A DNA stretch of 64,000 nucleotides, from NCBI GenBank assembly GCA_964606885.1, contig CAZSHB010000001.1, positions 61,569 to 125,568 of the forward strand. Direction: 5' to 3'. Of the stretch, positions 4,976-56,331 are shown piece after piece. The stretch is from an uncultured Pseudomonadota bacterium (lineage in GTDB: Bacteria; Babelota; Babeliae; Babelales; CAIQNR01). The position numbers and the translations under genes were made by a program. The first letter of the stretch is position 1, and every line of letters starts with the position of its first letter. Below the pieces are notes generated by a model. The model worked only from the letters and a program-made list of their open reading frames with translations, was not told the origin of the DNA and did no database searches.

Positions 4976-5660
4976 GTTCTTCCTTTTCATAACCTAAAAA
5001 TATCTGTAACAACAACGACACTCTGTCTGAAACACGGCACAGTTGATGCTCAATTTCCGCTACGCGCATTTGCAAATGATTAAACATAATCAACATAGGA
5101 ATCGCCACCATCAACCCTGCAAGGGTAGTAATCAATGCTTCTGCAATACCAGGTGCTGTTGTCACAATATCAGCACTTTGTAATTCACTAATACTCATAA
5201 ATGCATGCATCAATCCCCACACGGTACCAAAAAGACCAATCAACGGAGATACTGCAGCATTAACCGAAATAATATGAAGATGCGCATTTTCTTGGTACAC
5301 CATATGATCAATAGTTAAAAAGCGTTGTTCATCAAGTAATGCTTTTTCTTTTTCTGAAAGTATTGATGCGCGACGAGCAACTTTTTTTGCTTCTTGTACT
5401 TGTTCTAAAACAAGATGGCCTGCATACCCTTGTGCCGATTCTTGTGCAATAAACGTAAGTTGTTCAAGCGAGTTAACTGTACGCAAACGTACGCGCAGCT
5501 CAGTAAGTTGACGCATTTTCGTCCTAAACATCACTATTTTATAAAAAATAATGGTCCAACAAATAACTGATGCTGCTAACAACGACAAGAGCACAAGCTT
5601 GGTCATAAGATCAGATTGAGCGACTAAAAACCAGAGTGAATTGCCCGAAAAAAAATTCAT
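4923..5660 (-). CDS. tolQ: MotA/TolQ/ExbB proton-channel protein
   Basis: Three TM segments and the conserved C-terminal half (GLFGTVWGLMHAF...APGIAEALITTLAGL). Confidence 0.85.
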   Translation of the reverse strand: MNFFSGNSLWFLVAQSDLMTKLVLLSLLAASVICWTIIFYKIVMFRTKMRQLTELRVRLRTVNSLEQLTFIAQESAQGYAGHLVLEQVQEAKKVARRASILSEKEKALLDEQRFLTIDHMVYQENAHLHIISVNAAVSPLIGLFGTVWGLMHAFMSISELQSADIVTTAPGIAEALITTLAGLMVAIPMLIMFNHLQMRVAEIEHQLCRVSDRVSLLLQIFLGYEKEEHEVSNPSSQTSYSPHAS

Positions 5661-5699
5661 ATATTTTTCCTTCTTTTAAGCCTAATAGTGCCGCCTAGT

Positions 5700-7118
5700 C
5701 TACGTTAGTTTATTATTTTTTAACACCATTTCTTTTACTTTTTTCTTATCGTGTAACGACTGCTCAATTTGTAGTTCATACGCAGCTTGTACTAACTTAC
5801 CAAGCGCAGGCCCAGGCGCACACACATCCAAGAAATCTGCACCTGTTAACAACGGCTTTTCCGGTCCGTACGCAACACCATACTGTTGTGCACGTGTAAA
5901 AAATTCTTCAACTAATGGTTCTGGGCATACTGCTAATGGCCTGTGCTTTTCTGGATTACGTGCCGACTTATCCGCTTTACAAAGCATATACAAATCGTAC
6001 ATCGTACATTCTGGCGCAAGTTTTGATGCAAGTCGTTTATACGCAGCAGCACTACTGTTATTTTTTACTAATGCTATAGGTGTCATATGGTGGCGCACTA
6101 ATTTAAGCACCGCATCTTGTATATGTTGCGTGGGACATAAACGCTTAAGAAGACTACTTGCCGGTTTTACCCCTGCAACATCATGCCCTAACGAACGAAT
6201 GCGCCCATCAACAAATTGTGTAGTTGCCGGCTTGCCAAGATCATGCGCAAGTGCTGCAAACACTAATGTTAATTTTTTCTCTACAGTCTCATACGTATAC
6301 GAAGCTGCTGCATCAACTGCCTGCATAGTATGCTCAAACACATCCCCTTCCGGGTGGTATTCGAGCCACTGACTAACATGTTGTAAGGCCGCAACTTCAG
6401 GCGCTATCTCTTTAAGACGACCAATCGTGGCAAGCCAACGGATACCAAGCGATGGTTGTTCCGATTTTAAGAATAACTTTTCAAACTCTTTACTAATACG
6501 TTCTTGTGCCACACCTGCTAGATCCATATTTGTACACAAGGCTGATAGTTCTGCATCAGGATGCATGTTAAACCGACCTATAAACTGCATTACTCTATAA
6601 AAGCGCAACGGATCTTGTACAAAAAAATGAGCATCCGGCGTCCGCAACAGATTCTTCTGTAAATCGTGCACGCCATTAAAGGGGTCAATCAGTTCTCCAG
6701 TTGCAAGATCAATACCCATAGCATTTATGGTAAGATCGCGCCGCCTAAACGCATCGGCCATGTTCATATGCGGGTCTAACGTGACGGTTGGTTTTCTACC
6801 GGCAGTATCGGCACGAGGTAGCGACCAATCGGCAGGTATACCATCAATCTTTAAAACGCCGTACACCTTACCCACCAAACGCACATGCCCAAACTTTTTG
6901 AGTACCTTTTCTAGCGCTGCTAGTCCAAGACCATGCACTTCAATATCTATGTCTTCAAGAGGTTTTTGCAACAATGCATCGCGCACTGCACCTCCTACTA
7001 AAAGAACACGTGCATTCTGAACGTGTAAAGCATCAACTATAGGTGCAATGGCGGGATGTTTACTAAAAATAGTTTCACGTGTTTTTTGTACTAACTGAGC
7101 AACTTTTGTAGACTGCAT
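5700..7118 (-). CDS. cca: CCA-adding tRNA nucleotidyltransferase with HD domain
   Basis: PolyA-polymerase/CCA head domain (LLVGGAVRDALL...DIDIEV; RRDLTINA) followed by an HD domain (ALAHDLGK). Confidence 0.85.
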   Translation of the reverse strand: MQSTKVAQLVQKTRETIFSKHPAIAPIVDALHVQNARVLLVGGAVRDALLQKPLEDIDIEVHGLGLAALEKVLKKFGHVRLVGKVYGVLKIDGIPADWSLPRADTAGRKPTVTLDPHMNMADAFRRRDLTINAMGIDLATGELIDPFNGVHDLQKNLLRTPDAHFFVQDPLRFYRVMQFIGRFNMHPDAELSALCTNMDLAGVAQERISKEFEKLFLKSEQPSLGIRWLATIGRLKEIAPEVAALQHVSQWLEYHPEGDVFEHTMQAVDAAASYTYETVEKKLTLVFAALAHDLGKPATTQFVDGRIRSLGHDVAGVKPASSLLKRLCPTQHIQDAVLKLVRHHMTPIALVKNNSSAAAYKRLASKLAPECTMYDLYMLCKADKSARNPEKHRPLAVCPEPLVEEFFTRAQQYGVAYGPEKPLLTGADFLDVCAPGPALGKLVQAAYELQIEQSLHDKKKVKEMVLKNNKLT

Positions 7119-7233
7119 AGAATCATCACTTTTACATTAAAGATACTGTATGAATACCAAACAATTTTTATCTATCGATTTTTTATCAACTCTTTTTAAC
7201 TCTACGTTGCCAGCACTTTTTTTAAAAGATATT
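6955..7233. repeat. Segmental duplication copy A (cca 5' end + divergent promoter + 5' end of LRR gene)
   Basis: Aligns by eye over about 280 bp, roughly four-fifths identical, with 9081-9356. Shared blocks include gcaacaatgcatc, acacgtgcatt, gtgtaaagcatcaactata, gtactaactgagcaacttttgta and atactgtatgaataccaaaca. Confidence 0.85.
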
Positions 7234-8076
7234 CCATTCTTGAGCTATACAACATTAAAATGTGTGCCTCTTATACTTCTCTTTGTGTCTCATTCTTATC
7301 TGTATAGCTCAGATAAAAAACATATAAGCAAACAAGCAAGAAAATCTTTACGTACACTTCAGTTAAGTAAACTTCAAGCAATTCAATCGCAACAAAAAAA
7401 AGGTGAATCAACTCTTGAATGCATCCAGAAAGAACCAGAACATCCAGTCCATCATAAAAATGATACAGCCCAACTCACAGATAAACTGGCTACTGATGAC
7501 ATATTTACACGCAAGAATAAACGGGATTTTTTTGTAGTTCAGAACAAAGATGGAAGCTTTTCTACTATTAGCGCATTAACAGTGCTTATTCTATCGCATA
7601 ACAAATTAACATCATTCCCCAAAGAAAGTTTTTCTCATCTTTCATATTTAAAAGAGCTTGATTTATCAGACAACCAGCTCACTACACTGCCTGATATGTG
7701 TAAAGCAGATTTACCCAATCTAAAAACCCTACATTTATCCAGAAATAATTTAACATCTGAAACAGTAAATCAATTTCCTGTACTTCCACGTTTAAAAAAC
7801 CTTTACTTAGACAATAATCAAATAACAGAATTTCCTAATGTATCAGCTGAACCACTAATGCACATTCGTTATATTGATTTAAGTGATAATCAAATTACCA
7901 AGATAGATTACACTAAGATACTAGCGTATAAAAGACCTCTAGAAACTACGATATTAAATATGGAAAACAATCCTGTACAGGACACGAATAATCCTACTCG
8001 TTTAGGTATTATTTTTAAAGATGAAGATCGTTATCGATATAGAGGTAAAATACCCAATGAATGCACTTTACTTTAA
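7150..8076 (+). CDS. Leucine-rich-repeat protein with C-terminal CaaX box (CTLL)
   Basis: LRR units LxxLxLxxNxL (LKELDLSDNQLTTLPD, LKTLHLSRNNLTS, LKNLYLDNNQITEFPN, IRYIDLSDNQITKI). The last four residues are C-T-L-L then stop (TGC at 8062-8064). Confidence 0.8.
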   Translation: MNTKQFLSIDFLSTLFNSTLPALFLKDIPFLSYTTLKCVPLILLFVSHSYLYSSDKKHISKQARKSLRTLQLSKLQAIQSQQKKGESTLECIQKEPEHPVHHKNDTAQLTDKLATDDIFTRKNKRDFFVVQNKDGSFSTISALTVLILSHNKLTSFPKESFSHLSYLKELDLSDNQLTTLPDMCKADLPNLKTLHLSRNNLTSETVNQFPVLPRLKNLYLDNNQITEFPNVSAEPLMHIRYIDLSDNQITKIDYTKILAYKRPLETTILNMENNPVQDTNNPTRLGIIFKDEDRYRYRGKIPNECTLL

Positions 8077-8083
8077 GGACAGT

Positions 8084-9022
8084 ATGTATAATACATTTAT
8101 TTTTATTTTCATTATAGCGACAATGCAATCTTTTTTTTCACATGCATCAGATACAACTGCAGATCGTTATCATACCATCAAGTTTGCTGATGGTTCACAA
8201 AAAGAATATTCCAACGAATCCATTACCGATCTACCTATAATGCAAGCAGCACAAGACGCTTCTGACACTACAAATCACACACTAAATTTGTCCCATTTAC
8301 GCAATCTTAACAAACACTATTTCACTACTCTCTTGTTAGTATTAGAAGCTAAAAAACGAAGCCCTAATCATGCACAGGGTTACTATCTGCATAATGATGG
8401 TCGACGCGTTAGTGATCAAGAAAGCATTGATGCCCTCTATGCTGCGCAATCCATATATAAAAAAGATGATCCTATTCATCAAGAAATAGGAGGTAAATTT
8501 CACATGTTTTTACGACAAATTCACATATCTAATGCCTTTCTACGCGCCCTTCCACCCACTCTTCCTTTTAAAGATGAAGCAAATAATACAATATACACGC
8601 TTAATCTAGAAGGTAATCTGCTCACAACGCTTCCTGATAATGTTTTTAACCATCTAAAAAACTTGAGCACCCTCAATCTATCACGTAATTCTTTAACATC
8701 CGTAACTGCTGCAACTCTGTCTGGTCTTACTGCTTTAAAAGAACTTAATCTCTCATACAACAACCTCTCTCAAGTGCCTGAAGTTGCTCTAACATCATTA
8801 GAAAAGCTTGATGTACGCGGAAATAAAATAAAAAAAGTACGTTATGCTACATTAGCTCTTAAACAATTAGGGCCACAATTAAAACTCTTAGATTTACGAT
8901 CTAATCCCTTAAGTCCCGCTACTCACCTAGCTATGGATGCTATCCCAAAAGATACGTTAGACGTTTATCTAGAAGATGCTGATGTACCACCTAAAAAAGA
9001 TGGCGACTGTGCATTACTTTAA
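8084..9022 (+). CDS. Leucine-rich-repeat protein with C-terminal CaaX box (CALL)
   Basis: ATG at 8084 has an AAGGA SD 4 nt upstream and gives the signal peptide MYNTFIFIFIIATMQSFFSHA. LRRs: LNLEGNLLTTLPDNVFNHLKNLSTLNLSRNSLTS...LKELNLSYNNLSQVP. Ends C-A-L-L then stop (TGT at 9008-9010). The ORF-track start 8021 overlaps the upstream gene. Confidence 0.8.
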   Translation: MYNTFIFIFIIATMQSFFSHASDTTADRYHTIKFADGSQKEYSNESITDLPIMQAAQDASDTTNHTLNLSHLRNLNKHYFTTLLLVLEAKKRSPNHAQGYYLHNDGRRVSDQESIDALYAAQSIYKKDDPIHQEIGGKFHMFLRQIHISNAFLRALPPTLPFKDEANNTIYTLNLEGNLLTTLPDNVFNHLKNLSTLNLSRNSLTSVTAATLSGLTALKELNLSYNNLSQVPEVALTSLEKLDVRGNKIKKVRYATLALKQLGPQLKLLDLRSNPLSPATHLAMDAIPKDTLDVYLEDADVPPKKDGDCALL

Positions 9023-9064
9023 CAACAGATTATGTTAAGAACATTATGCATCGTATCACTTAGC

Positions 9065-9243
9065 TCACTATCCCTGCTTTCAAGATGCTTTTGCAACAAT
9101 GCATCTTGCACTACACCTCGTACAAAGAAAACACGTGCATTTTGAATGTGTAAAGCATCAACTATAGACTTAATAGCAGGATGTTTGCTAAAAATAATTT
9201 CTTGAGTTCTTTGTACTAACTGAGCAACTTTTGTACACTGCAT
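9065..9243 (-). pseudogene. Truncated duplicate of the cca 5' end (relic)
   Basis: The ORF-track peptide MQCTKVAQLVQRTQEIIFSKHPAIKSIVDALHIQNARVFFVRGVVQDALLQKHLE matches cca residues 1-55 (MQSTKVAQLVQKTRETIFSKHPAIAPIVDALHVQNARVLLVGGAVRDALLQKPLE). The GG motif is degraded and the rest of the gene is missing. Confidence 0.8.
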
Positions 9244-9356
9244 AAGATCATCACTTTTTAAAAAGGATACTGTATGAATACCAAACAGTTTTTAGCCATC
9301 GGTTTTTTACTAACTGCAGTTAACTGTACGTTGTCAGCACATATTTTTGAAGATAT
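9081..9356. repeat. Segmental duplication copy B
   Basis: Direct repeat of 6955-7233. It covers the cca relic, the intergenic promoter region and the first ~27 codons of the 9274 gene. Confidence 0.85.
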
Positions 9357-10080
9357 TTCGCTCTGGTGGAAAACAAAAGAAGAAGAAGTGGTAACACATG
9401 AACACAAATTATCCCCTGGCGCGCATATTTCTATAGAAAACAATAACGGTCCTATTACTATCAGCACTTGGAATAAAAACTCGATCATGTTAGAGGCTAC
9501 TAAATCAGGATCTGAACAATCGGTTAAAAATACCAAGATTGATCTCACCTACACCGCAAAAGGCTTATCTATAAAAACCGTTGGTCTTAAACCGGACAAA
9601 ACCTGTACTATTTCATTTGCAATTATCGTTCCTGTTGATGCTCACCTTGATTCCATTAAAACCGAACAAGGTAACATCACCGTAAAAAACAGTGCAACGC
9701 CACTCTCACTAAGCAGTAACTATGGCGATCTAACCGTGATTGACGCACAAAGCTCAATCAACGCACATACTAAATATGGACAAATCACCATATCAACGAC
9801 ATCTGAACTTAAAGATGATAATAAAGTACTTGCGTTTACCGAACGTGGCGCCATCACCATGCATGTACCAGAAAAAACAAATGCACACCTGTACGCAACT
9901 ACCTTACGTGGCAGTGTATCAACCGAACAACCTGTAACGCTTGATCCGCGCACAACTCCTATTAACACTAAAGCTATTGCGCAAATCAAACGGGACGTCC
10001 AAGGTTCTTTAGGTTCTGGACAAGGACCAACGTTTAAATTACACACCAACAAAGGCAATATTAAACTTGCTGTTAGCTAA
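9274..10080 (+). CDS. Secreted hypothetical protein, possibly DUF4097-like beta-helical (putative adhesin fold)
   Basis: Signal peptide MNTKQFLAIGFLLTAVNCTLSA. Repeated G-x-I-T-[VI] strands (GPITIST, GNITVKN, GDLTVID, GQITIST, GAITMHV, GNIKLAV). Confidence 0.45.
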   Translation: MNTKQFLAIGFLLTAVNCTLSAHIFEDISLWWKTKEEEVVTHEHKLSPGAHISIENNNGPITISTWNKNSIMLEATKSGSEQSVKNTKIDLTYTAKGLSIKTVGLKPDKTCTISFAIIVPVDAHLDSIKTEQGNITVKNSATPLSLSSNYGDLTVIDAQSSINAHTKYGQITISTTSELKDDNKVLAFTERGAITMHVPEKTNAHLYATTLRGSVSTEQPVTLDPRTTPINTKAIAQIKRDVQGSLGSGQGPTFKLHTNKGNIKLAVS

Positions 10081-10637: not shown

Positions 10638-11309
10638 TTATCTACGAGCAGCCATATAATCAAGATACGCTTGTCGATTATTTGCCAGCCGTTCTTCTAG
10701 TTTCCATTGACGTTGTTCACGCTTCCATGCAAGTCCTTCTATAAAAGTAAGCCATACATGCGACCAACTGCCAAGATACCCAGGTCTTGGACGTAACCCA
10801 TATTCATGCAAAAAAAGCGCAATACGATTTGTTAAAGAATGATAGCTTGGATCGCCAAATTCGGGACGCGTTGCAATAGTAGTTTGTAATTTACCAACAT
10901 CACCACGCATTTGCCTAAGCACTTCTGCATATTCCCATGAATACAAACTTTCTATAAACGCACGCACATCAGCTTGATATTGAAGGGCAACTATTTCACC
11001 TACATTTTCATAATGATCATAATAAGGCTGAAAATAATTATCTGAGATATTCACGCCATTAATAGTTTGTATTGTCGTTCTACATATAGGACATCTTGGC
11101 GCTGTCTGTGATAACTCATCCATCCATTCTTGAATGCACGGTTTACAAAAACTATGACCACAGTTTGCTTGTGCATTAAGTAATTTTTCATCAAGACAAA
11201 TGGGACATGTATCAGCGGCTGAAGCGTCATAAAAAATGTCTTCTGCGTCTGCTGCATAGATAGAACTACTCACTACTGTAGCAACTAACACTATTAGTTT
11301 TATGTTCAT
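10638..11309 (-). CDS. Secreted RING-HC (C3HC4) finger protein, putative E3 ubiquitin ligase mimic
   Basis: Signal peptide MNIKLIVLVATVVSSSIYA. Perfect RING spacing in CPIC-x11-CGH-x2-C-x2-C-x14-CPIC (DNA ~11076-11207). One copy of a ~60-aa C-terminal module is shared with the upstream gene. Confidence 0.8.
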   Translation of the reverse strand: MNIKLIVLVATVVSSSIYAADAEDIFYDASAADTCPICLDEKLLNAQANCGHSFCKPCIQEWMDELSQTAPRCPICRTTIQTINGVNISDNYFQPYYDHYENVGEIVALQYQADVRAFIESLYSWEYAEVLRQMRGDVGKLQTTIATRPEFGDPSYHSLTNRIALFLHEYGLRPRPGYLGSWSHVWLTFIEGLAWKREQRQWKLEERLANNRQAYLDYMAARR

Positions 11310-12376
11310 CGTACACCCCCTGCTTGGTAACGTGCCATTTTTCTTGCTTCCCTTGCATCTTCATCAAGATCAGGAACTTCTATAGCAAGATCTTGAGTTG
11401 ATATATTCAAATCTCGTCTAAAAATTTCCATACGAATTTCTGGAGTTAGCCATGTCTGATCAATCCATTCTGGATGCGTAAAAATATTTTCTTCTATCTT
11501 ACCTTCATAATAACTCCATAGAACCGTATAGTCACGTGGCGTCAAACTGTCGATAAAATCTCTTATTTCTTGGTAATAAGCATCTGGAATAACAAACTGA
11601 TCCATACCTTCTATAACAGGTCGGGTAAAATCAAACACATGATCTGCTGGATCAAAAAGATCTTCATCTTCAATAAATTGATCCGCAAAATATAAACGGT
11701 CAAACTCTGCAGCATTATTCATTGCACGATGATTAGTTTTATCTTGACGATCATAATCTTCTGCCTCAGTCAAATCCAAGCGCTCATCTATTTCTTGTAA
11801 ACCAACATAATTTCTAAAAAAAGCCATACGTCGCTCTAATGGTAACCACGTATCATCAACCCATTCTGGTGTTAAAGAAAGAATAATTTCTAAACTACTA
11901 TCTTCATCATCACTATATTCATCAAGTAATGCCTGATATTCCTGAACATTTAACTGATGAACAAAATCTTGAATTTGTTGACGATACATTGGTGCAACTA
12001 TAATGCGACGGTTAATATCGGGAGCAAAATTAAAATTGTGGCTGAGCGCAGGAGAGGGCTTAAATGGCACCCTAACAGGTTGCTGATTAATAGTTGTTAC
12101 ATCTGCTCTACATGCAGGGCATGTATCATGTTCATGCAACCATCCATCAATATACTCCTCCTGGCCATCTGGATAACCATCTTTAATACAAGGCATACAA
12201 AACTGATGACCACAATTTAATTGTGCATCAAGTACTATGTCTTCTTCTATACAAATCGGGCATTTTCCTGTTACTTGTTTTATAGCTTGAGGTTCTTCTG
12301 CCGGCTGTTCTGCTGCTTGTAAACCCACATTTGCTGTTAATAACAGCAAACTTGCCAACCATACTATCCGCTTCAT
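11306..12376 (-). CDS. Secreted RING-HC (C3HC4) finger protein with duplicated C-terminal module
   Basis: ATG at 12376 is preceded by AAAGGGGG; the ORF-track TTG start is 12409. Signal peptide MKRIVWLASLLLLTANVGLQA. RING: CPIC-x12-CGH-x2-C-x2-C-x23-CPAC (DNA ~12110-12262). The stop overlaps the downstream start as ATGA (11306-11309). Confidence 0.8.
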   Translation of the reverse strand: MKRIVWLASLLLLTANVGLQAAEQPAEEPQAIKQVTGKCPICIEEDIVLDAQLNCGHQFCMPCIKDGYPDGQEEYIDGWLHEHDTCPACRADVTTINQQPVRVPFKPSPALSHNFNFAPDINRRIIVAPMYRQQIQDFVHQLNVQEYQALLDEYSDDEDSSLEIILSLTPEWVDDTWLPLERRMAFFRNYVGLQEIDERLDLTEAEDYDRQDKTNHRAMNNAAEFDRLYFADQFIEDEDLFDPADHVFDFTRPVIEGMDQFVIPDAYYQEIRDFIDSLTPRDYTVLWSYYEGKIEENIFTHPEWIDQTWLTPEIRMEIFRRDLNISTQDLAIEVPDLDEDAREARKMARYQAGGVR

Positions 12377-12569
12377 TATAACCCCCTTTTTTATGCTCTC
12401 TACTTCCAATAAGCCAATGTTTTACGTATTAAGCTTATCGCAATGTTTCAATTTGAATTATATCAACTTGCCAGCCTTTTAGACAAGAAAAAAATTGATC
12501 CGGCTTACTATTGCTTTAAACTACGTACTATTATTTTAAACTTTATGCGCGATAAAAAGGACCATCCCT

Positions 12570-14260: not shown

Positions 14261-16015
14261 ATGAAACGTTTTTCCGCACTTATGCCGTTTCTTTTTTCTT
14301 GTTCGTTGTTATCCATTTCTGTAGAACTCAAAGAAAAAAAAATATCTCCCACGCAAACAGATATCGCTTGTACCTTTGTGCTCCAACCGCATGAAGTTCT
14401 GTACGAAAAAAATATGCTTTTTTCTATAGATAACCCTGATGTGACCCTTTCTAAAGCAACCCCTAACAAAGAACTTTCATCATCATACGATCCGCATTTT
14501 AAAGAACACCGTATGGTATTTGATGAAAACGTAACCTTCTCTCTACAAGCAACACGTACAACACCAAACGACACCCCAACAAATCTTACTATTCTTTATG
14601 CAACCAGCACCCACAAAGAAGGCCAAAACGCAACGTTTGCTATTAACTTTGCTCATGCACAAGATGGCGCTATAAGTGCATCTCCTGCAAATCAGGATAT
14701 TCAAGAATGCCAAGTATTAGTCAAACAAGAAGAAGCGAGCAGTTGGCGAGGCACTATCCAAAAAATAAAGGACACCGTCAGCTCTACCGATTCGTGGTTA
14801 CTGCGTCTTACCTTTGTCTTCTTACTTGGGTTATTACTCAGCCTTACTCCGTGCATTTACCCAATGATTCCTATAACTGTTGGTATTTTACAAGCACAAG
14901 GCAGCAAATCTCTCAGTAGAAATTTTTTCTTATCCTGCTGTTACACCATGGGTCTTTCAACCACCTTTGCATTGATGGGGTTACTAGCAGCGTCATCAGG
15001 TTCAGTCTTTGGACACTTACTTGCTAACCCTCTGTTTGTACTCTGTATTGTCGCCTTACTCTGCTACTTTGCATTTTCACTTTTTGGTTTTTACAACATG
15101 TACATTCCAAAAGTTATGCGTGGTAAAGGATCACTTTCTAGCACCGGTTCAGCATTATCAATTTTTACCTTTGGCCTTGCAAGCGGCACCTTTGCATCAC
15201 CATGCGTATCACCAGGCTTAGCACTGGTTCTTGCAATTGTTGCAGCACTTGGCAGCAAACTCTTAGGATTCTTACTTCTGTTTGTATTTGGTATTGGTAT
15301 GAGCACGCCACTTTTAGTTATTGGCACCTTCTCAAGCTCTATTAATATGCTTCCACGTGCAGGTATGTGGATGATAGAAATTCAACGCCTGTTTGGATTC
15401 TTATTGCTTGGTATGTGCTTCTATTACCTCAACGCACTTATCCCTGATGCATTAACCGCAGCTGGCGTCTGCGTACTTCTTGTTGTTGCTGGCGTCTATT
15501 ACATACGTACCAAACACAGCAGTTCAGGCGTTTGGAAGTTCCTCAAAAACATTATTGGTATCGGCTGTTTAGCAATATCAGCATTCTTAGCAGTAGTTAC
15601 TATTCAAGATATGTACTACCCAGAACTGCATAAAACAACACAAGACAACTGGTTTACCGATCTTGATAAAGCACAAGAAGTAGCACTGGCTCAAAACAAA
15701 AAAGTATTTATCGATTTTTGGACACCATATTGCTCAATTTGCAAAGCAATCACCAACACAGTACTAAAAGATGCAAGTGTAGGTTGTGTACTCAATCAGT
15801 ACTACACCGTACTGACAGTTGACGCTTCTGATAACAATACTGAACCATACAAAACATTACGCTCACGCTATGATATTCAAGGCGTACCAACACTTATTAT
15901 TGTTGACCCAACAAACAATAAGGCATTAAAGCGTTGGTCAAGCGAATTGTATGACATGGAAAAATCTGCAATTATTGAAGAGCTGACTGCATACGGACAA
16001 GCAAAAAGTCTGTAA
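14261..16015 (+). CDS. dsbD: Thiol:disulfide interchange protein DsbD-like (CcdA-type membrane domain + C-terminal thioredoxin)
   Basis: Signal peptide and N-terminal domain. Polytopic core with LTPCIYPMIP and SPCVSPG motifs. C-terminal Trx fold with WTPYCSICK. Confidence 0.75.
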   Translation: MKRFSALMPFLFSCSLLSISVELKEKKISPTQTDIACTFVLQPHEVLYEKNMLFSIDNPDVTLSKATPNKELSSSYDPHFKEHRMVFDENVTFSLQATRTTPNDTPTNLTILYATSTHKEGQNATFAINFAHAQDGAISASPANQDIQECQVLVKQEEASSWRGTIQKIKDTVSSTDSWLLRLTFVFLLGLLLSLTPCIYPMIPITVGILQAQGSKSLSRNFFLSCCYTMGLSTTFALMGLLAASSGSVFGHLLANPLFVLCIVALLCYFAFSLFGFYNMYIPKVMRGKGSLSSTGSALSIFTFGLASGTFASPCVSPGLALVLAIVAALGSKLLGFLLLFVFGIGMSTPLLVIGTFSSSINMLPRAGMWMIEIQRLFGFLLLGMCFYYLNALIPDALTAAGVCVLLVVAGVYYIRTKHSSSGVWKFLKNIIGIGCLAISAFLAVVTIQDMYYPELHKTTQDNWFTDLDKAQEVALAQNKKVFIDFWTPYCSICKAITNTVLKDASVGCVLNQYYTVLTVDASDNNTEPYKTLRSRYDIQGVPTLIIVDPTNNKALKRWSSELYDMEKSAIIEELTAYGQAKSL

Positions 16016-34203: not shown

Positions 34204-35532
34204 ATGATAAGCTTTTTAAGCGGATTTGAAAGCAAGCAAGAAAGACGCAAATTTAGTCTTTTAGCGGTTGTTTTCAGTTTAACTATTGGTGTTTACTGGC
34301 TATTTCGTCCAGTAAAAGACGGTGTGTTTTTAACCATGGTTGGAACTGACTGGCAGCCTCTAGTTAAGATTCTGTCTTTCTTTGTGGTTGTTCCTATTGT
34401 TTTCATCTACAGCAAGCTTGTTGATAGATTCCCTCGTCACAAATTGCTGTACGGTTTGTCTGTATTCTATGCAATCGCAACCGTTATTTTCGCATTTTTA
34501 ATTTTAAACCCTGTTATTGGTATTGCCAATACTGAAGCTTCTCCATGGCGTTTACTAGGTTGGACCTGGTACTTGTTTGTAGAAAGCTTTGGATCAGTTA
34601 TGGTTGCACTTTTCTGGTCTTTTGTTGCTGATACAACAACTCCAGATTCAGCTAAACGTGGTTATTCATTAATCGCGCTTGGTGGTCAACTTGGTGGTCT
34701 TATGGGGCCATTCGCTGGTGGTTACATTGCTGACCATTACGGCACAGGTTCAGCACTTTTATTTGGTGCAGCTGGCCTTATCGCATTAACAGTATCAGTA
34801 TGGTACTACATGCGTTCTATGCCAAAAACTGAAATGCAAGGTTTTGCAGCTCATGGTAAACCATTAGAAAGCAAAGCTGGCGAAACTAAATCTAAGCCTG
34901 GTTTTGGTGAAGGACTACGTCTTTTACTTACTAAGCCATACTTGCTTGGTATTTTCGCAGTTGTTTCATTCTACGAAATTATCGTTACTATCCTTGACTA
35001 TCAATTCAAAGTTCTTGCAGCAACAGAATATACTGGTGATGCATTGACTTCTTACTTGTCACAATTTGCTATGTGGACTAACGGTGTTGCATTAGCTTCA
35101 TTGTTACTTGGTGCAGGCGCAGTTGGTCGTAAGCTTGGCCTAACTCGCACCTTGTTACTCTTGCCTATTTTAATTGCAGTAGCAGTACTTGTTATGAGCT
35201 TTAACCCTGTGTTGAATATTGCATTCATGATCATGGTTATCAGCAAAGGTATTAACTACGCACTTAACCAACCAGCAAAAGAACAATTGTACATTCCAAC
35301 AAGCAAAGACTCGAAGTATAAAGCTAAAGCATGGATCGACATGTTCGGTTCTCGTTCATCAAAAGGCCTTGGTTCTATTGTAAATGGATTCAAAGGTATT
35401 GCTGGCGCAGAAATGTTCATGATCATCAGCGCAGCTGCTTCTCTTGGTATGATTGGTGTTTGGATTTTTGCAGCTCTCTTCTTGGGCCGCACTCATGCAA
35501 AAGCAGTCAAAGAAGACCGTCTTGTTTGCTAA
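34204..35532 (+). CDS. Nucleotide transporter, Tlc/NTT (ATP:ADP antiporter) family
   Basis: Polytopic, ~12 TM. The N-terminal RKF...W.FRPVKD block and the family block NYALNQPAKEQLYIPTSKDSKYKAKAWIDMFGSRSSKGLGS are typical of PF03219-type carriers as I recall them from Rickettsia and Chlamydia. Confidence 0.75.
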   Translation: MISFLSGFESKQERRKFSLLAVVFSLTIGVYWLFRPVKDGVFLTMVGTDWQPLVKILSFFVVVPIVFIYSKLVDRFPRHKLLYGLSVFYAIATVIFAFLILNPVIGIANTEASPWRLLGWTWYLFVESFGSVMVALFWSFVADTTTPDSAKRGYSLIALGGQLGGLMGPFAGGYIADHYGTGSALLFGAAGLIALTVSVWYYMRSMPKTEMQGFAAHGKPLESKAGETKSKPGFGEGLRLLLTKPYLLGIFAVVSFYEIIVTILDYQFKVLAATEYTGDALTSYLSQFAMWTNGVALASLLLGAGAVGRKLGLTRTLLLLPILIAVAVLVMSFNPVLNIAFMIMVISKGINYALNQPAKEQLYIPTSKDSKYKAKAWIDMFGSRSSKGLGSIVNGFKGIAGAEMFMIISAAASLGMIGVWIFAALFLGRTHAKAVKEDRLVC

Positions 35533-35559: not shown

Positions 35560-35598
35560 AAAAAAATAAGGCAGGAAAAAATCCTGCCTTATTTTTTT
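35560..35598. terminator. Bidirectional rho-independent terminator
   Basis: aaaaaaATAAGGCAGGAaaaaaaTCCTGCCTTATttttttt. Confidence 0.8.
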
Positions 35599-35618
35599 AT
35601 CTAATTTTAAAAAGCATA

Positions 35619-35894
35619 TTAAAGAATTATACATCCTTTTTCATCATTTATCTTCATGCGTACATATGCTTCTTGATCCAAACCCATCACTTCATACATA
35701 TTTCTGTCTACCCACTCTCTTCTATACTCATCCTCTCGGCACTGCCGATCATGACTTGCTTGCAACTGTTCTAAGGCTTTTGTTTGTGCTTCCACTTGAG
35801 CCTTCAAAGCTTCTAATTGCTGAAAATTATCATTTGAGCTTGCACAAACCTGCATTGTCAAAACCAGTGCCGTTATAATAAGCATTTTTTTCAT
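35619..35894 (-). CDS. Small secreted coiled-coil protein with C-terminal CaaX box (CIIL)
   Basis: Signal peptide MKKMLIITALVLTMQVCASS and a helical heptad-like middle (QQLEALKAQVEAQTKALEQLQA). The last four residues are C-I-I-L then stop (Cys codon 35631-35633). Confidence 0.6.
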   Translation of the reverse strand: MKKMLIITALVLTMQVCASSNDNFQQLEALKAQVEAQTKALEQLQASHDRQCREDEYRREWVDRNMYEVMGLDQEAYVRMKINDEKGCIIL

Positions 35895-36184
35895 ATTTTT
35901 CCTTTCAGGAATGTTATCTTACTGTTACGTTTACCGACAGTCGATTATACAACATCAAACAACATTAACAATAATTATATTCATAATAAATCCTATTTGG
36001 ATCAATAATAGAGTGCCCTTTGCCCTGCCTTATTTGTTTTAATTTTCGCTATGGCAATTTATTCCTTTATGCTACACTGCTTTCTATACTAAAAAGTGTA
36101 AAAAATCGCCAAGGAATAACGATGTTTGAGTTGCCACATCATATCTTCTGTCAACATGTCCTGAGAGTAGTAGAGATAAAAAAT

Positions 36185-46358: not shown

Positions 46359-47834
46359 ATGAAAAAAGTCTTATTATGCGCTCTGACTCTTACAACCAGC
46401 ACCACTCAATTTGCAGCGACGGGCGTCACCGTTAAAACAGATCTAACCGATGCAGAAAAAGAAATCGTAGCCATGTCCCAAACGCTCACTGAAGCAATCA
46501 ACTGCATTCACAACCGTTATTACCACAGCCTCAATTCAGAGGAGGTTAAAAAAGCCTTCTCAAATGCTATCCGTGGTTTTACCAAACTTGATCCACACAC
46601 AGGATTTCTTGATGATAAAGAATGTCGCTTTCTACAAGAGCAAATGGCTGGTGAATTTTATGGCATAGGCATCGTGCTTCCGGGTGATAAAGATGTAGAA
46701 GAAGAATATGTTCCTGCTATTGAAATTATCCCTAACGGCCCTGCTGATAAAGCTGGTTTAAAACAAGGTGATAAAATTATAGAAATTAAAGACATCATCG
46801 TTAAAGGCATGAGCATGTCAGAAGTGCTTGCAGCTATTAAGGGCGAAAAGAACAGCCAAGTTACTATCAAAGTTATGCGCGAAAAATATCCTGAACCAAT
46901 CACCTTTGATGTTAAACGGGATGTAATCAAGTCTGATGATATGTTCTTAATGTTCCATTTACCTGAACAAAACATCTATTACCTCATGCTCTCGGTATTT
47001 AGCGAAAAATCGGTTATTCATGTACGCAAACTGCTTGAAGTTGCAAACAAGAATAAAGCTGAAGGTTTAATTATCGATCTACGCAACAACACCGGCGGTC
47101 TGCTTGATGCAGCGGTTGATATCGCAAGTTTATTCTTACCAAAAGACTCACTGGTCGTAGTAACCAAAAACAGAGAAAACAAAGTAACTGAAAGCTGGAA
47201 AACCAAAAAGAAACCGCTTGATCGTCCACAAGGCATGCCAATCTTTTTCATAACCAACAACTACACCGCTTCAGCAGCAGAAATTCTAGCCGGTACACTA
47301 TCACTCTACTCGCAAAATAATGGAGAAAAACTGAACCTGTTTGTCTTCACCGTAGGTATTGATACGTTCGGTAAAGGGTCAGTCCAAGAAGTAATTTCCC
47401 TCTCTAACCATTGCGCTCTGCGTATGACCACCGCGCTCTACTTTTTACCATTTGATACGCTCATACAAGGCAAAGGCATCACCCCCGATTTCCATATTGA
47501 GCCACGCACCCCGCCAAGTGAAACGGTTAAATGGATGACCTCCCGTTATGGCCGCGAAGCATCACTTAAAGGTTCTATTAAGCCTCATGGCCACAAAGAA
47601 GAACCTAAAAAAGATGCTAAGAAAAAAGAAGCCAAAAAGAGCTGGGAAGAACAACGTAAAGAACTAATCGCAAAAGACTATATGGTACAAAACACGGTCG
47701 ACTTAATCCGGCTGCGCCATATTGGTATAAAAGCGTATCCAGATCTAACAAAAAGCAGAAAAAAACAGCTTGAATTCCTACAAAAAAACTTTGTGTTGGA
47801 TAACGAACTTAAGCTCGAAAAAGTACCTAACTAA
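46359..47834 (+). CDS. Carboxy-terminal processing (tail-specific) protease, S41 family with PDZ domain
   Basis: Signal peptide, PDZ (GIGIVL...PNGPADKAGLKQGDKIIEI) and an S41 core (LIIDLRNNTGGLL, ASAAEILAG, GKGS). Confidence 0.9.
   Translation: MKKVLLCALTLTTSTTQFAATGVTVKTDLTDAEKEIVAMSQTLTEAINCIHNRYYHSLNSEEVKKAFSNAIRGFTKLDPHTGFLDDKECRFLQEQMAGEFYGIGIVLPGDKDVEEEYVPAIEIIPNGPADKAGLKQGDKIIEIKDIIVKGMSMSEVLAAIKGEKNSQVTIKVMREKYPEPITFDVKRDVIKSDDMFLMFHLPEQNIYYLMLSVFSEKSVIHVRKLLEVANKNKAEGLIIDLRNNTGGLLDAAVDIASLFLPKDSLVVVTKNRENKVTESWKTKKKPLDRPQGMPIFFITNNYTASAAEILAGTLSLYSQNNGEKLNLFVFTVGIDTFGKGSVQEVISLSNHCALRMTTALYFLPFDTLIQGKGITPDFHIEPRTPPSETVKWMTSRYGREASLKGSIKPHGHKEEPKKDAKKKEAKKSWEEQRKELIAKDYMVQNTVDLIRLRHIGIKAYPDLTKSRKKQLEFLQKNFVLDNELKLEKVPN

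Positions 47835-53856: not shown

Positions 53857-56331
<2,475 letters not shown>

Follow-up and report, generated by a model that had tools for sequence, protein, structure and literature searches.

Three genes in a 64,000-nucleotide stretch of bacterial DNA, which we call the window, encode proteins that end in CTLL, CALL and CIIL. Two of these proteins, LRR1 and LRR2, are neighbouring LRR proteins, and the third is a small helical protein of 91 aa. We lean, with somewhat better than even confidence, towards the reading that all three are secreted effectors geranylgeranylated by the GGTase-I of a protist host, and delivered through Sec and type II secretion (T2SS) or in vesicles. They are best explained as accessory, fast-evolving secreted proteins, and their bodies would be able to bind other proteins, by way of either an LRR solenoid of the 24-residue type or a helical hairpin.

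The best named matches of GyrB are 66-68% identical and come from Dependentiae/Babeliales and, on this sequence evidence, the window belongs to the Dependentiae (TM6, order Babeliales). Characterised Dependentiae are intracellular parasites of protists (PMC4776705, PMC6561590); the intracellular lifestyle of the present bacterium is taken from this literature on the phylum. Since a eukaryotic lipidation tag here occurs in a phylum of intracellular protist parasites, the host probably lipidates these proteins.

Frequency of CaaX termini

The three genes and their features are as follows.

7150..8076, + strand: LRR1 gene; product of 308 aa with some five LRRs of 24 residues, end CTLL
7255..7305, + strand: hydrophobic segment of LRR1, LKCVPLILLFVSHSYLY, which aligns with the LRR2 signal peptide
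7573..8004, + strand: LRR solenoid of LRR1, residues 142-285 (Pfam stretches and 24-residue register)
8062..8076, + strand: CaaX box CTLL and stop codon of LRR1, the same in locus L001 of a second strain
8084..9022, + strand: LRR2 gene; product of 312 aa (ATG at 8084) or of 321 aa (start at 8057); end CALL
8084..8146, + strand: Sec signal peptide predicted for LRR2, MYNTFIFIFIIATMQSFFSHA, followed by SD (hydrophobicity and cleavage-site pattern)
8504..8971, + strand: LRR solenoid of LRR2 (AlphaFold2 model)
8978..9022, + strand: flexible tail of LRR2, EDADVPPKKDGD, with CaaX box CALL and stop codon (AlphaFold2 pLDDT)
35619..35894, - strand: ORF of the small, putatively secreted helical protein; 91 aa, end CIIL
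35619-35633, - strand: CaaX codons and stop codon of the 91-aa protein
35841-35894, - strand: predicted signal peptide of the 91-aa protein, MKKMLIITALVLTMQVCA, followed by SS

The C-terminus of LRR1 reads ...IPNECTLL-TAA, with a TGC cysteine codon at 8062-8064; that of LRR2 reads ...KKDGDCALL-TAA, with a TGT codon at 9008-9010 and its end at 9022; and that of the 91-aa protein reads ...EKGCIIL. These ends and codon positions, including the third ORF, are exactly those given in a preliminary description of the window. The stops are not assembly artefacts, a possibility which that description had raised, for the two LRR ORFs recur with identical ends in an assembly made independently (Logan SRR27639470, L001). 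In CTLL, CALL and CIIL, as well as in the CRIL of an ortholog discussed below, the cysteine stands at position -4 in a form compatible with FTase or GGTase-I. The final residue is leucine in every box, and the modification predicted is therefore geranylgeranylation.

In order to assess how often such ends arise by chance, we took a census of the 55 non-overlapping window ORFs of at least 80 aa. A cysteine occupies position -4 in 3/55, and all three of these ends are of the form C-[AVILT]-[AVILT]-L. The number of CaaX-type ends expected among 55 ORFs is 0.011 from the amino-acid composition, or 0.012 from internal 4-mer frequencies, which yields a Poisson P(>=3) of 2.7e-7. The preliminary description had counted three CaaX proteins as far above random expectation. 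The excess stands, but not the count of three independent events: LRR1 and LRR2 are paralogs (25% identity, BLASTP E 1e-16), and so the occurrences number two. When the paralogs are treated as a single event, the Poisson P(>=2) is 6.9e-5.

Our empirical control comprised 925 ORFs, taken from 82 further bacterial loci (1.1 Mb), 80 of which are metagenome Lon-gene neighbourhoods; the Lon search had returned mostly other phyla, and its loci were reused as a null. A cysteine at -4 was found in 11/925 control ORFs and C-a-a-[LFM] in 0/925, so that the hypergeometric probability for the window against these controls is ~1.7e-4. CaaX ends were likewise absent from ~56 ORFs in the gyrB-syntenic loci of three relatives, and from the 7 called ORFs of the Lon loci that come closest (two loci, 65-67%); a lineage-wide strategy is thus not established by these loci. 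Among 66 other LRR homologs, two carry a cysteine at -4, with the ends CSVQ, which fits a farnesyl-type box, and CSCV, which is less typical.

Architecture and divergence of the three proteins

Pfam finds LRR_8 and LRR_4 matches in both LRR ORFs (E 1e-22 to 3e-15; individually, LRR_4 at 7e-24 and LRR_8 at 1e-22 in LRR1, and LRR_8 at 3e-15 in LRR2). Tandem LxxLxLxxNxL repeats, five 24-residue units in register, place the proteins among the LRR solenoids. In the AlphaFold2 model of LRR2 the mean pLDDT of ten-residue blocks is 79-97 over residues 121-230, and 69, 89, 91 and 84 over residues 231-270; Foldseek matches this model to generic LRR structures (Nogo receptor, LRRTM2, Leptospira LRR proteins). 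Both proteins terminate some 20-30 residues past the last repeat. In LRR2 this tail has a block mean of 72 at residues 271-280 and pLDDT below 50 at residues 283-285 and 287-291. The N-terminal domain of LRR2 is modelled with low confidence, and Pfam finds no family match for the N-terminal domain of either paralog.

The N-terminus of LRR2 has a hydrophobic maximum of 2.94 over 10 residues and a small-x-small site, SHA. Its start has three candidates (8021, 8057 and 8084); an AAGGA Shine-Dalgarno sequence lies 6 nt 5' of the ATG at 8084, and the copy recorded at NCBI starts at 8057. BLASTP aligns the paralogs from the hydrophobic segment of LRR1 onwards (FVSHS.. versus FFSHA..), and this segment is probably an ancestral signal peptide or membrane anchor. 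All three CaaX proteins, then, have hydrophobic N-terminal segments predicted to be of Sec type. A lipobox of the form [LVI][ASTVI][GAS]C is absent from the N-termini of LRR1 and LRR2, and the MQVC at the end of the 91-aa protein's signal peptide does not fit it; the ortholog of that protein has D in place of the cysteine.

The 91-aa protein is modelled by AF2 as a long helix (residues 20-64), a second helix (74-85) and a low-confidence tail (mean pLDDT 44 in the last block). Thus, both modelled tails, in LRR2 and in the 91-aa protein, are predicted to be disordered or of low confidence, as expected of flexible ends. For the 91-aa protein we found no Pfam match even at E <= 10, no fold match in the PDB and no eukaryotic homolog; mimicry of G-gamma/GGL or SNARE proteins was considered, and has neither Pfam nor fold support. 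An identical product is recorded at NCBI (P0189), as is the case for the 308 aa of LRR1. Searches of the contig index for the exact sequences of LRR1, LRR2 (from 8084), the 91-aa protein (from either start) and CTP synthase gave no match. Searches for more distant relatives returned little: a scan of genome contigs with LRR1 gave only spurious matches, in Bacillus and Bacteroidales; viral contigs gave none; and a chimeric query, composed of the 91-aa protein, the N-domain of LRR1 and the ORF at 9274, recovered only the known LRR1 ortholog. This last result indicates that the ORF at 9274 and the LRR N-domains are without relatives detectable by word-indexed search.

The boxes have been retained through considerable divergence. 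Despite their 25% identity, both LRR paralogs end in C-x-L-L; if identity were uniform at 25%, the C and the two L would all be kept with a probability of ~0.016. The second strain, at locus L001, retains both LRR boxes and both stop codons: the LRR1 ortholog there is 92% identical, with the same C-terminal end, and the LRR2 ortholog (P0001) is also 92% identical, with its final 18 residues unchanged. For the 91-aa protein, an ortholog of 48-49% identity (P0190) ends in CRIL. Its gene is syntenic, lying in locus L087 between the two NTT genes, among flanking genes of 84-90% identity. The two best-conserved stretches between these orthologs are the signal peptide and VRMKxNDExGCxIL, and the two other cysteines of the 91-aa protein are lost in the ortholog while the CaaX cysteine is kept. 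The motif therefore appears, from this conservation in orthologs and paralogs above chance, to be maintained by selection.

The proteins themselves are changing rapidly. Between the two strains LRR1 has 28 non-synonymous changes against 4 synonymous ones, a dN/dS of ~2.0, and the ratio for LRR2 is ~1.5; with only ~30 changes per gene, neither value differs significantly from 1, and so relaxed constraint is compatible with them. Almost all the differences in LRR1 fall at non-consensus positions, sparing the positions of the LRR scaffold. As a counterpoint to the maintenance of the box, the small gene is absent from one strain. The segment involved is

35583..36035: 441-bp presence/absence segment containing the entire small gene (strain comparison)

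Its two margins carry a 12-bp direct repeat, CCTGCCTTATTT (35583-35594 and 36024-36035). In the near-identical strain SRR27639470 (locus L088) the segment is missing and a single copy of the repeat is left; since so close a strain has lost it by a clean deletion, the 91-aa gene is dispensable.

The LRR pair, too, lies between direct repeats.

6940..7233: repeat copy A; 5' end of the CCA-enzyme gene, intergenic DNA and the first 28 codons of LRR1
9065..9357: repeat copy B; 5' pseudo-fragment of the CCA gene, intergenic DNA and the start of the ORF at 9274-10080

These copies (294 bp, 82% identity by blastn) contain, in copy B, the CCA-gene pseudo-fragment (ORF 9019-9243, - strand) and the start of ORF 9274-10080, whose product begins MNTKQFLAIGF.... 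The ribosome-binding site and the first 28 codons of LRR1 are duplicates of those of the neighbouring gene and so, by inference, is its promoter. The position of the pair between the repeats, together with this borrowed 5' end, points to an insertion or duplication at the site. The same CCA pseudo-fragment adjoins the LRR pair in L001, and no tRNA or other Rfam feature was found near the insertion. We also considered composition as evidence for a foreign origin of LRR1, and dropped it: a GC3 of 0.21, against a window mean of 0.30, lies within 1.6 SD and is no outlier.

Probable host prenylation and the alternatives to it

If the host does lipidate these proteins, Sec would first export them; release would follow, through the type II system or in outer-membrane vesicles, and they would thereby reach the host cytosol. 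Geranylgeranyltransferase I of the host would there recognise CaaL and add a C20 isoprenoid to the cysteine, after which host Rce1 would cut off the last three residues and Icmt would methylate the new C-terminus. The lipid tail would anchor the protein to a host membrane on its cytosolic side, and there the concave face of the LRR could bind a host target. Neither a polybasic stretch nor a second cysteine stands beside the box, which makes an endomembrane or the membrane enclosing the bacterium a likelier destination than the plasma membrane.

The gene context is consistent with such a route. TM6 bacteria have a core type II secretion system, and an action on the host has been suggested for their LRR, ankyrin, F-box and WD40 proteins (PMC4776705). 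In Chromulinavorax, which lives in the host cytoplasm, 44% of CDS carry signal peptides and putative effectors are secreted (PMC6561590). Outer-membrane vesicles have been reported for the phylum, and no T3SS or T4SS is described in the Dependentiae literature we examined; nor did we find secretion-system genes among the window ORFs scanned. Within the window, signal-peptide-like N-termini occur in about half of all ORFs. They are found in two RING-finger proteins encoded 1.6 kb downstream of the LRR pair, and in ankyrin and cPLA2-like (phospholipase-like) proteins encoded nearby. RING domains are known partners of the ubiquitin machinery of eukaryotes, and this is in keeping with Sec-signal proteins of this organism acting in the host cytosol; by analogy, the RING neighbours suggest that proteins of this kind may reach that compartment.

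The preliminary description had proposed effectors lipidated by the host, as in Legionella and Salmonella. What could be computed from this proposal (taxonomy, excess, retention, tails and context) agrees with it. Given the Sec-type N-termini, the delivery route probably differs from the T4SS or T3SS described for the CaaX effectors of those genera.

It is important to ask whether the same ends could serve the bacterium itself. The proteins might be exported by Sec, lipidated at the cysteine at -4, trimmed by a CPBP (Rce1-family) protease and displayed on the bacterial surface via the type II system, an account that we consider unlikely. All three proteins do have both an N-terminus that resembles a signal peptide and a C-terminal cysteine that is conserved, a type II core is present in the phylum (PMC4776705), and comparable signals exist in bacteria: MYXO-CTERM and JDVT-CTERM proteins pair a signal peptide with an invariant-Cys C-terminal motif that is processed by a myxosortase (CPBP) and routed through type II secretion (PMC11980579). 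In a MYXO-CTERM-type tail, however, a transmembrane helix comes after the cysteine motif, and then an Arg-rich cluster (PMC11980579), whereas the window proteins end three residues after the cysteine and lack this tripartite structure. CPBP, Lgt-like and prenyltransferase domains, moreover, were not found among the window ORFs scanned. The geometry of a cysteine at -4 with a final leucine is what the eukaryotic enzyme requires, and we know of no bacterial system that requires it.

Another account, which we likewise find unlikely, places the proteins in the periplasm or on the surface; their apolar, cysteine-containing tails would have no part in lipidation and would resemble a CaaX box by coincidence. 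Such a tail could serve as a recognition tail for a C-terminal protease, as a PDZ ligand or as a disulfide partner. Two window genes are relevant in this respect.

46359-47834: S41 C-terminal processing peptidase that carries PDZ domains
14261-16015: DsbD

The signal-peptide-like N-termini, shared as they are with so many window ORFs, are as this account would have them, and the structurally similar LRR proteins found by Foldseek include those of Leptospira and the Listeria internalins. Coincidence, on the other hand, is strongly disfavoured by the census and the controls. The cysteine stands at exactly -4 in two unrelated families, and divergence to 25% and 48% identity has left it in place where other cysteines have disappeared; to our knowledge, tail-specific proteases do not require a cysteine at that position.

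It is quite improbable that the genes are relics captured from a eukaryotic host, with a CaaX box inherited from the donor and no longer used. Some features do suggest capture: the repeats belong to the 24-residue type, animal LRR proteins occur among the weak matches, the LRR pair sits between direct repeats as though inserted, and LRR1 has a low GC3. But the eukaryotic matches are only ~30-40% identical over at most a third of the protein, the GC3 is within the range of the window, the box survived the divergence of the paralogs, and the 91-aa protein is unrelated and has no eukaryotic homolog that we could find. Decay of non-functional LRR genes, in which the motif persists merely for lack of time, is very improbable: the dN/dS at or above 1 and the deletion of the small gene in one strain would fit it, but both LRR ORFs are unbroken in two strains although each has ~30 substitutions, these substitutions spare the Leu/Asn scaffold, and the paralogs are ancient and still full-length with their boxes.

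Relation to known systems and implications

Host prenylation of the three window proteins, as preferred here, may be set beside several known systems. Salmonella SifA is an effector with a C-terminal CaaX-type motif that is prenylated by the host, which promotes its membrane association. The same is reported of GtgE (PMC13423502). Both are type III substrates, and differ from LRR1, LRR2 and the 91-aa protein in fold and phylum. In Legionella, AnkB and the Pel proteins carry CaaX boxes lipidated by host prenyltransferases; they leave the bacterium through the Dot/Icm type IV system and are anchored on host or vacuolar membranes (PMC2916131, PMC13081727). Like AnkB and the Pel proteins (including PelE/LegG1), the LRR proteins unite a eukaryotic interaction domain with a C-terminal CaaX box, in a phylum known for parasites of protists. 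The 91-aa protein, for its part, resembles LseA, a SNARE-like coiled-coil protein of Legionella with a CaaX end (PMC7542358). The differences are that the Legionella effectors belong to Gammaproteobacteria and use type IV delivery, while the present proteins come from another phylum and have signal-peptide-like N-termini, and that AnkB is farnesylated, while boxes ending in leucine predict geranylgeranylation. We found no sequence homology to the Legionella prenylated effectors, and the combination of LRR and CaaX is not described in the prenylated-effector literature examined.

Eukaryotic substrates of GGTase-I, such as Rho/Rac/Rap GTPases and G-protein gamma, bear the same Cys-a-a-Leu end on a flexible tail. 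CALL and CIIL are in fact the ends of some human G-gamma subunits, which serves as a lead only. Unlike those substrates, the window proteins contain no GTPase or G-gamma domain, and Pfam shows nothing beyond LRR. In their solenoid fold, and in the host-protein-binding role it implies, LRR1 and LRR2 resemble Leptospira LRR proteins, Listeria internalins and LRRs of the YopM/IpaH type. They differ from internalins and IpaH types in having no NEL ubiquitin-ligase domain, cell-wall anchor or Ig-like domain (Pfam shows LRR families only). The repeats of YopM/IpaH are also shorter than the 24-residue "typical" LRR, and we know of no report of CaaX tails in the Leptospira, Listeria or YopM/IpaH-type proteins. 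Closest in phylogenetic terms are the ankyrin, LRR, F-box and WD40 proteins of Dependentiae/TM6 itself, which are presumed to manipulate the host and often have signal peptides (PMC4776705, PMC6561590). Prenylation is not mentioned in the TM6 genome literature examined, the terms "CaaX" and "Dependentiae" were not found together in the literature searched, and the genome literature examined contains no validated Dependentiae effector.

The phylum is mostly uncultured, and its published genomes are rich in ankyrin, LRR, F-box, WD40 and signal-peptide proteins. A lipidation tag that is peculiar to eukaryotes, and is retained through strong divergence, offers a compact marker of action in the host cytosol. 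The LRR and helical proteins described here probably extend the class of CaaX effectors known from Legionella and Salmonella to a new phylum, and their export is apparently of Sec type. If so, host-prenylation mimicry would reach from Proteobacteria to a distant candidate phylum, and an LRR scaffold would be added to the prenylated-effector repertoire. Sec-exported proteins would then reach the host cytosol from a phylum with no described T3SS or T4SS, which raises the question of the delivery route. If instead a bacterial enzyme reads the tag, it would constitute a new, minimal sorting signal of four residues, a bacterial counterpart of eukaryotic CaaX processing. If the host reads it, the CaaX tag could guide the search for effectors of intracellular bacteria in their metagenome-assembled genomes.

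CaaX ends and their expected frequency

A CaaX box is a C-terminal Cys-a-a-X tag that eukaryotic prenyltransferases lipidate. The preliminary description had reported such boxes on two tandem leucine-rich-repeat (LRR) proteins, taken to be adjacent paralogs, and on a third ORF, and had placed their number far above random expectation. The two LRR ends are exactly as it gave them, and the third ORF is present as well:

CaaX-ended proteins of the window
7150-8076, +: LRR1, 308 aa, ends CTLL (...RGKIPNECTLL, then TAA; Cys codon 8062-8064)
8084-9022, + (start 8084 likeliest, stop 9020-9022): LRR2, ends CALL (...PPKKDGDCALL, then TAA; Cys codon 9008-9010)
35619-35894, -: small protein, 91 aa, ends ...NDEKGCIIL

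To assess the excess, non-overlapping ORFs no shorter than 80 aa were picked greedily from the window, 55 in all. Exactly three of these carry Cys at position -4, and all three fit C-[AVILT]-[AVILT]-L. By comparison, the expected number of CaaX-Leu ends is 0.011 given the window's amino-acid composition, or 0.012 given how often this 4-mer occurs within the proteins (4 in 18,698 positions). The Poisson probability of at least three such ends is 2.7e-7; that of at least two, with the paralogs taken as one event, is 6.9e-5. As an empirical null we used 82 other bacterial loci (80 fetched with Lon protease, 2 from a genome scan; 1.1 Mb), in which Cys stands at -4 in 11 of 925 ORFs and a C-a-a-[LFM] end in none of the 925.

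The idea that the ORFs might run on past their apparent stops is refuted, since the locus L001 of a second, near-identical strain (Logan SRR27639470), assembled independently from a different sequencing run, shows both LRR ORFs with the same ends and identical stop codons. In relatives, no further CaaX protein was found among about 56 ORFs around gyrB, nor in the two closest Lon loci, where 7 ORFs were called. Two signal-peptide ORFs in locus L086, from a relative whose GyrB is 75% identical, end ...GKTCCV (5234-5683, +) and ...RKVCGC (5696-6235, -), CGC being formally a Rab-type CXC end; these ends may be due to chance.

Anatomy, probable insertion or duplication, and divergence of the LRR pair

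LRR1 and LRR2 are indeed paralogs, alignable from the signal-peptide region through the last residue (25% identity, E 1e-16). Pfam recognises LRR_8 and LRR_4 in both (E 1e-22 to 3e-15), with about five 24-residue repeats in register. An AAGGA that overlaps the stop codon of LRR1 precedes the ATG at 8084 by 6 bases; on the NCBI record LRR2 starts at 8057. Signal peptides were called by hydrophobicity and cleavage-site rules rather than by a dedicated predictor, and by these rules the N-terminus of LRR2 is a clean predicted signal peptide (MYNTFIFIFIIATMQSFFSHA, followed at the cleavage site by SD). Its N-terminal region of about 100 residues belongs to no family and is modelled with modest confidence (block mean pLDDT 41-79), the solenoid is modelled confidently (mostly 79-97), and the last residues fall below 50. 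Foldseek returned only generic LRR structures for LRR2 (Nogo receptor, LRRTM2, variable lymphocyte receptors, Leptospira LRR proteins). Residues 36-52 of LRR1 form a hydrophobic segment homologous to that of LRR2, and the LRR1 start (MNTKQFLSIDF...), 30 codons further upstream, is a diverged copy of the start of ORF 9274-10080 (MNTKQFLAIGF...).

Features around the LRR pair
6940-7233 and 9065-9357: direct repeats bracketing the LRR pair, 294 bp, 82% identity
9019-9243, -: pseudo-fragment (truncated 5' end) of the CCA-adding-enzyme gene, from the downstream repeat copy

Within each repeat lie the 5' end of the CCA-adding-enzyme gene, the intergenic stretch, and 28 codons from the start of ORF 9274-10080. 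Because the repeats bracket the pair and a pseudo-fragment was left behind, the LRR cassette appears to have been inserted or duplicated at this site, in a pattern that resembles a single-crossover (Campbell-type) insertion or a tandem duplication. The ribosome-binding site and start codons that LRR1 now uses are duplicates of its neighbour's, and its promoter presumably is too. L001 shows this arrangement as well. The pair does not stand out as foreign in base composition: GC3 is 0.21 in LRR1, and the window mean is 0.30 (SD 0.056).

Between the two strains (window 7150-9022 versus L001 70-1942; dS about 0.02) LRR1 shows 28 non-synonymous and 4 synonymous changes (omega 2.0, and 2.5 in the LRR part), and LRR2 shows 26 and 5 (omega 1.5). 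Because the changes are so few, these dN/dS values are indistinguishable from neutrality. The replacements sit on variable repeat positions and spare the Leu/Asn scaffold; those of LRR1 are concentrated on non-scaffold LRR positions, and those of LRR2 in the N-terminal domain (14 non-synonymous, 1 synonymous; omega 3.8). The last 12-18 residues of the LRR proteins are unchanged between strains. At their level of divergence, both paralogs still end C-x-L-L, an outcome with a chance of about 0.016 under uniform 25% identity; the depth of this divergence is a stronger argument for retention of the box than is the strain comparison.

The small protein, neighbouring genes and the organism

The 91-aa protein is evidence independent of the LRR pair. 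A search of 1.84 billion representatives returned only an identical copy and one homolog, P0190 (49% identity), which sits at the same place, between two transporter genes, in locus L087 of a relative (GyrB 89% identical; same sample as P0070). Between the window and L087 the flanking proteins are 84-90% identical and the small protein 48%. In P0190 the signal peptide persists, as does the tail VRMKxNDExGCxIL, which ends CRIL; the other two cysteines are lost. A 441-bp segment with the whole gene, bounded in the window by 12-bp direct repeats (CCTGCCTTATTT) at 35583 and 36024, is absent from the near-identical strain (window 35583-36035 versus its locus L088 2263-2543), which counts against the gene being essential. 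Accessory effector genes usually vary in presence and absence and evolve fast, but this behaviour also fits dispensable genes.

Genes near the CaaX-ended proteins
10638-11309 and 11306-12409, both -: tandem RING-finger proteins (zf-C3HC4, E 3e-9 and 2e-8)
18550-20751, +: cPLA2/lysophospholipase-like protein with signal peptide, 733 aa (weak match to PLA2_B, E 3e-9)
34204-35532 and 36260-37642, both +: divergent NTP/NDP-exchange (TLC/NTT-like) transporters flanking the 91-aa gene
38974-39579 and 39629-40441, both -: adjacent ankyrin-repeat proteins with hydrophobic N-termini
40469-41395: phosphotransferase (APH/choline-kinase-like) with hydrophobic N-terminus, adjoining the ankyrin genes

Both transporters score far under the TIGR00769 cut-off (93 and 38 bits versus 387). 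The RING pair begins 1.6 kb downstream of the LRR pair, and both its N-termini are signal-peptide-like, so that a eukaryotic E3-ligase domain is joined to Sec-type export in a bacterium. Since RING domains work with eukaryotic ubiquitin machinery, this pairing supports, indirectly, the view that the organism's proteins of this type reach the host cytosol, a location that a CaaX box also requires.

The best named relatives of GyrB (53896-56331) are 'Candidatus Dependentiae bacterium' and 'Candidatus Babeliales bacterium' (66-68% identity); closer ones (75-98%) are metagenomic sequences. Downstream of the gyrB region, two relatives carry a giant ORF with no Pfam match (L084 15654-21695, -, and L085 12179-16907, -; 2013 and 2136 aa as called), and the window's genome may carry the same gene past the window end. 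The window also encodes Tol-Pal genes and very many ORFs of no family. By a hydrophobicity heuristic, 27 of its 55 ORFs have a signal-peptide-like start and no further transmembrane helix, a share of about half, in agreement with the published 44% in Chromulinavorax destructans (PMC6561590); many of the 27 have no Pfam or NCBIfam family. Characterised Dependentiae are described as protist parasites, and for the phylum Sec, a core type II secretion system, outer-membrane vesicles and numerous ankyrin, LRR, F-box and WD40 proteins with a proposed action on the host are reported (PMC4776705, PMC6561590); Chromulinavorax sits directly in the host cytoplasm (PMC6561590).

Readings of the boxes

The best-supported reading, which we consider reasonably probable, is that these proteins are exported by Sec, modified at the Cys by host geranylgeranyltransferase I (GGTase-I) and held at a membrane in the host. 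A bacterial C-terminal cysteine-sorting pathway might read the tails instead: bacteria do have pathways of this sort, in which CPBP-family myxosortases process MYXO-CTERM and related signals and type II secretion routes the substrates, which likewise have N-terminal signal peptides (PMC11980579). However, the tails here lack the transmembrane helix and Arg cluster that define those signals downstream of the Cys, and no CPBP-like gene occurs among the window ORFs scanned. If these were envelope proteins whose apolar tails serve an S41 tail-specific protease or PDZ domains, the fixation of Cys at -4 in two unrelated families would be left unexplained. Against relics of eukaryotic genes, no close eukaryotic homolog was found; against decaying genes, both LRR ORFs have stayed intact in the two strains and also as paralogs of old divergence.

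Host prenylation here would follow the same logic as in the prenylated effectors of Legionella (AnkB, the Pel/CMP proteins, LegG1, LseA) and in Salmonella SifA and GtgE (PMC13423502). Price et al. had already predicted that 20 pathogens and one endosymbiont, all effector-injecting, encode CaaX proteins (PMC2916131). Unlike the Legionella and Salmonella effectors, which are T3SS or T4SS substrates, the proteins here come from another phylum, have Sec-type N-termini and, in the LRR pair, an LRR scaffold, and have boxes that are all (3/3) geranylgeranyl-type. Since no sequence or fold homology to known CaaX effectors was found, their putative membership among these is by motif and logic only. In a searchable library we found no paper joining 'Dependentiae' and 'CaaX', and the word 'prenylation' was not found in any of three TM6 genome papers. 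A bacterial LRR protein unrelated to these, Ser-rich at its N-terminus (P0034; locus L089 8001-9338, on a JGI contig of 925,696 bp, GC 42%), ends CSVQ, a farnesyl-type box, and its neighbours include a further LRR protein, a Sel1-repeat protein and an SNF transporter; its source may be another intracellular bacterium with the same trick.

Under host prenylation, Sec would export LRR1, LRR2 and the 91-aa protein, a type II system or outer-membrane vesicles would probably release them, and they would then reach the host cytosol. GGTase-I would modify the Cys, because X is Leu, and Rce1 and then Icmt would process the prenylated end, following established rules (summarised in PMC2916131). The lipid would keep an LRR scaffold or a helical hairpin at the cytosolic face of a host membrane. 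Because the boxes have neither a polybasic stretch nor a second Cys beside them, that membrane is more likely an endomembrane, or the one adjoining the bacterium, than the plasma membrane.
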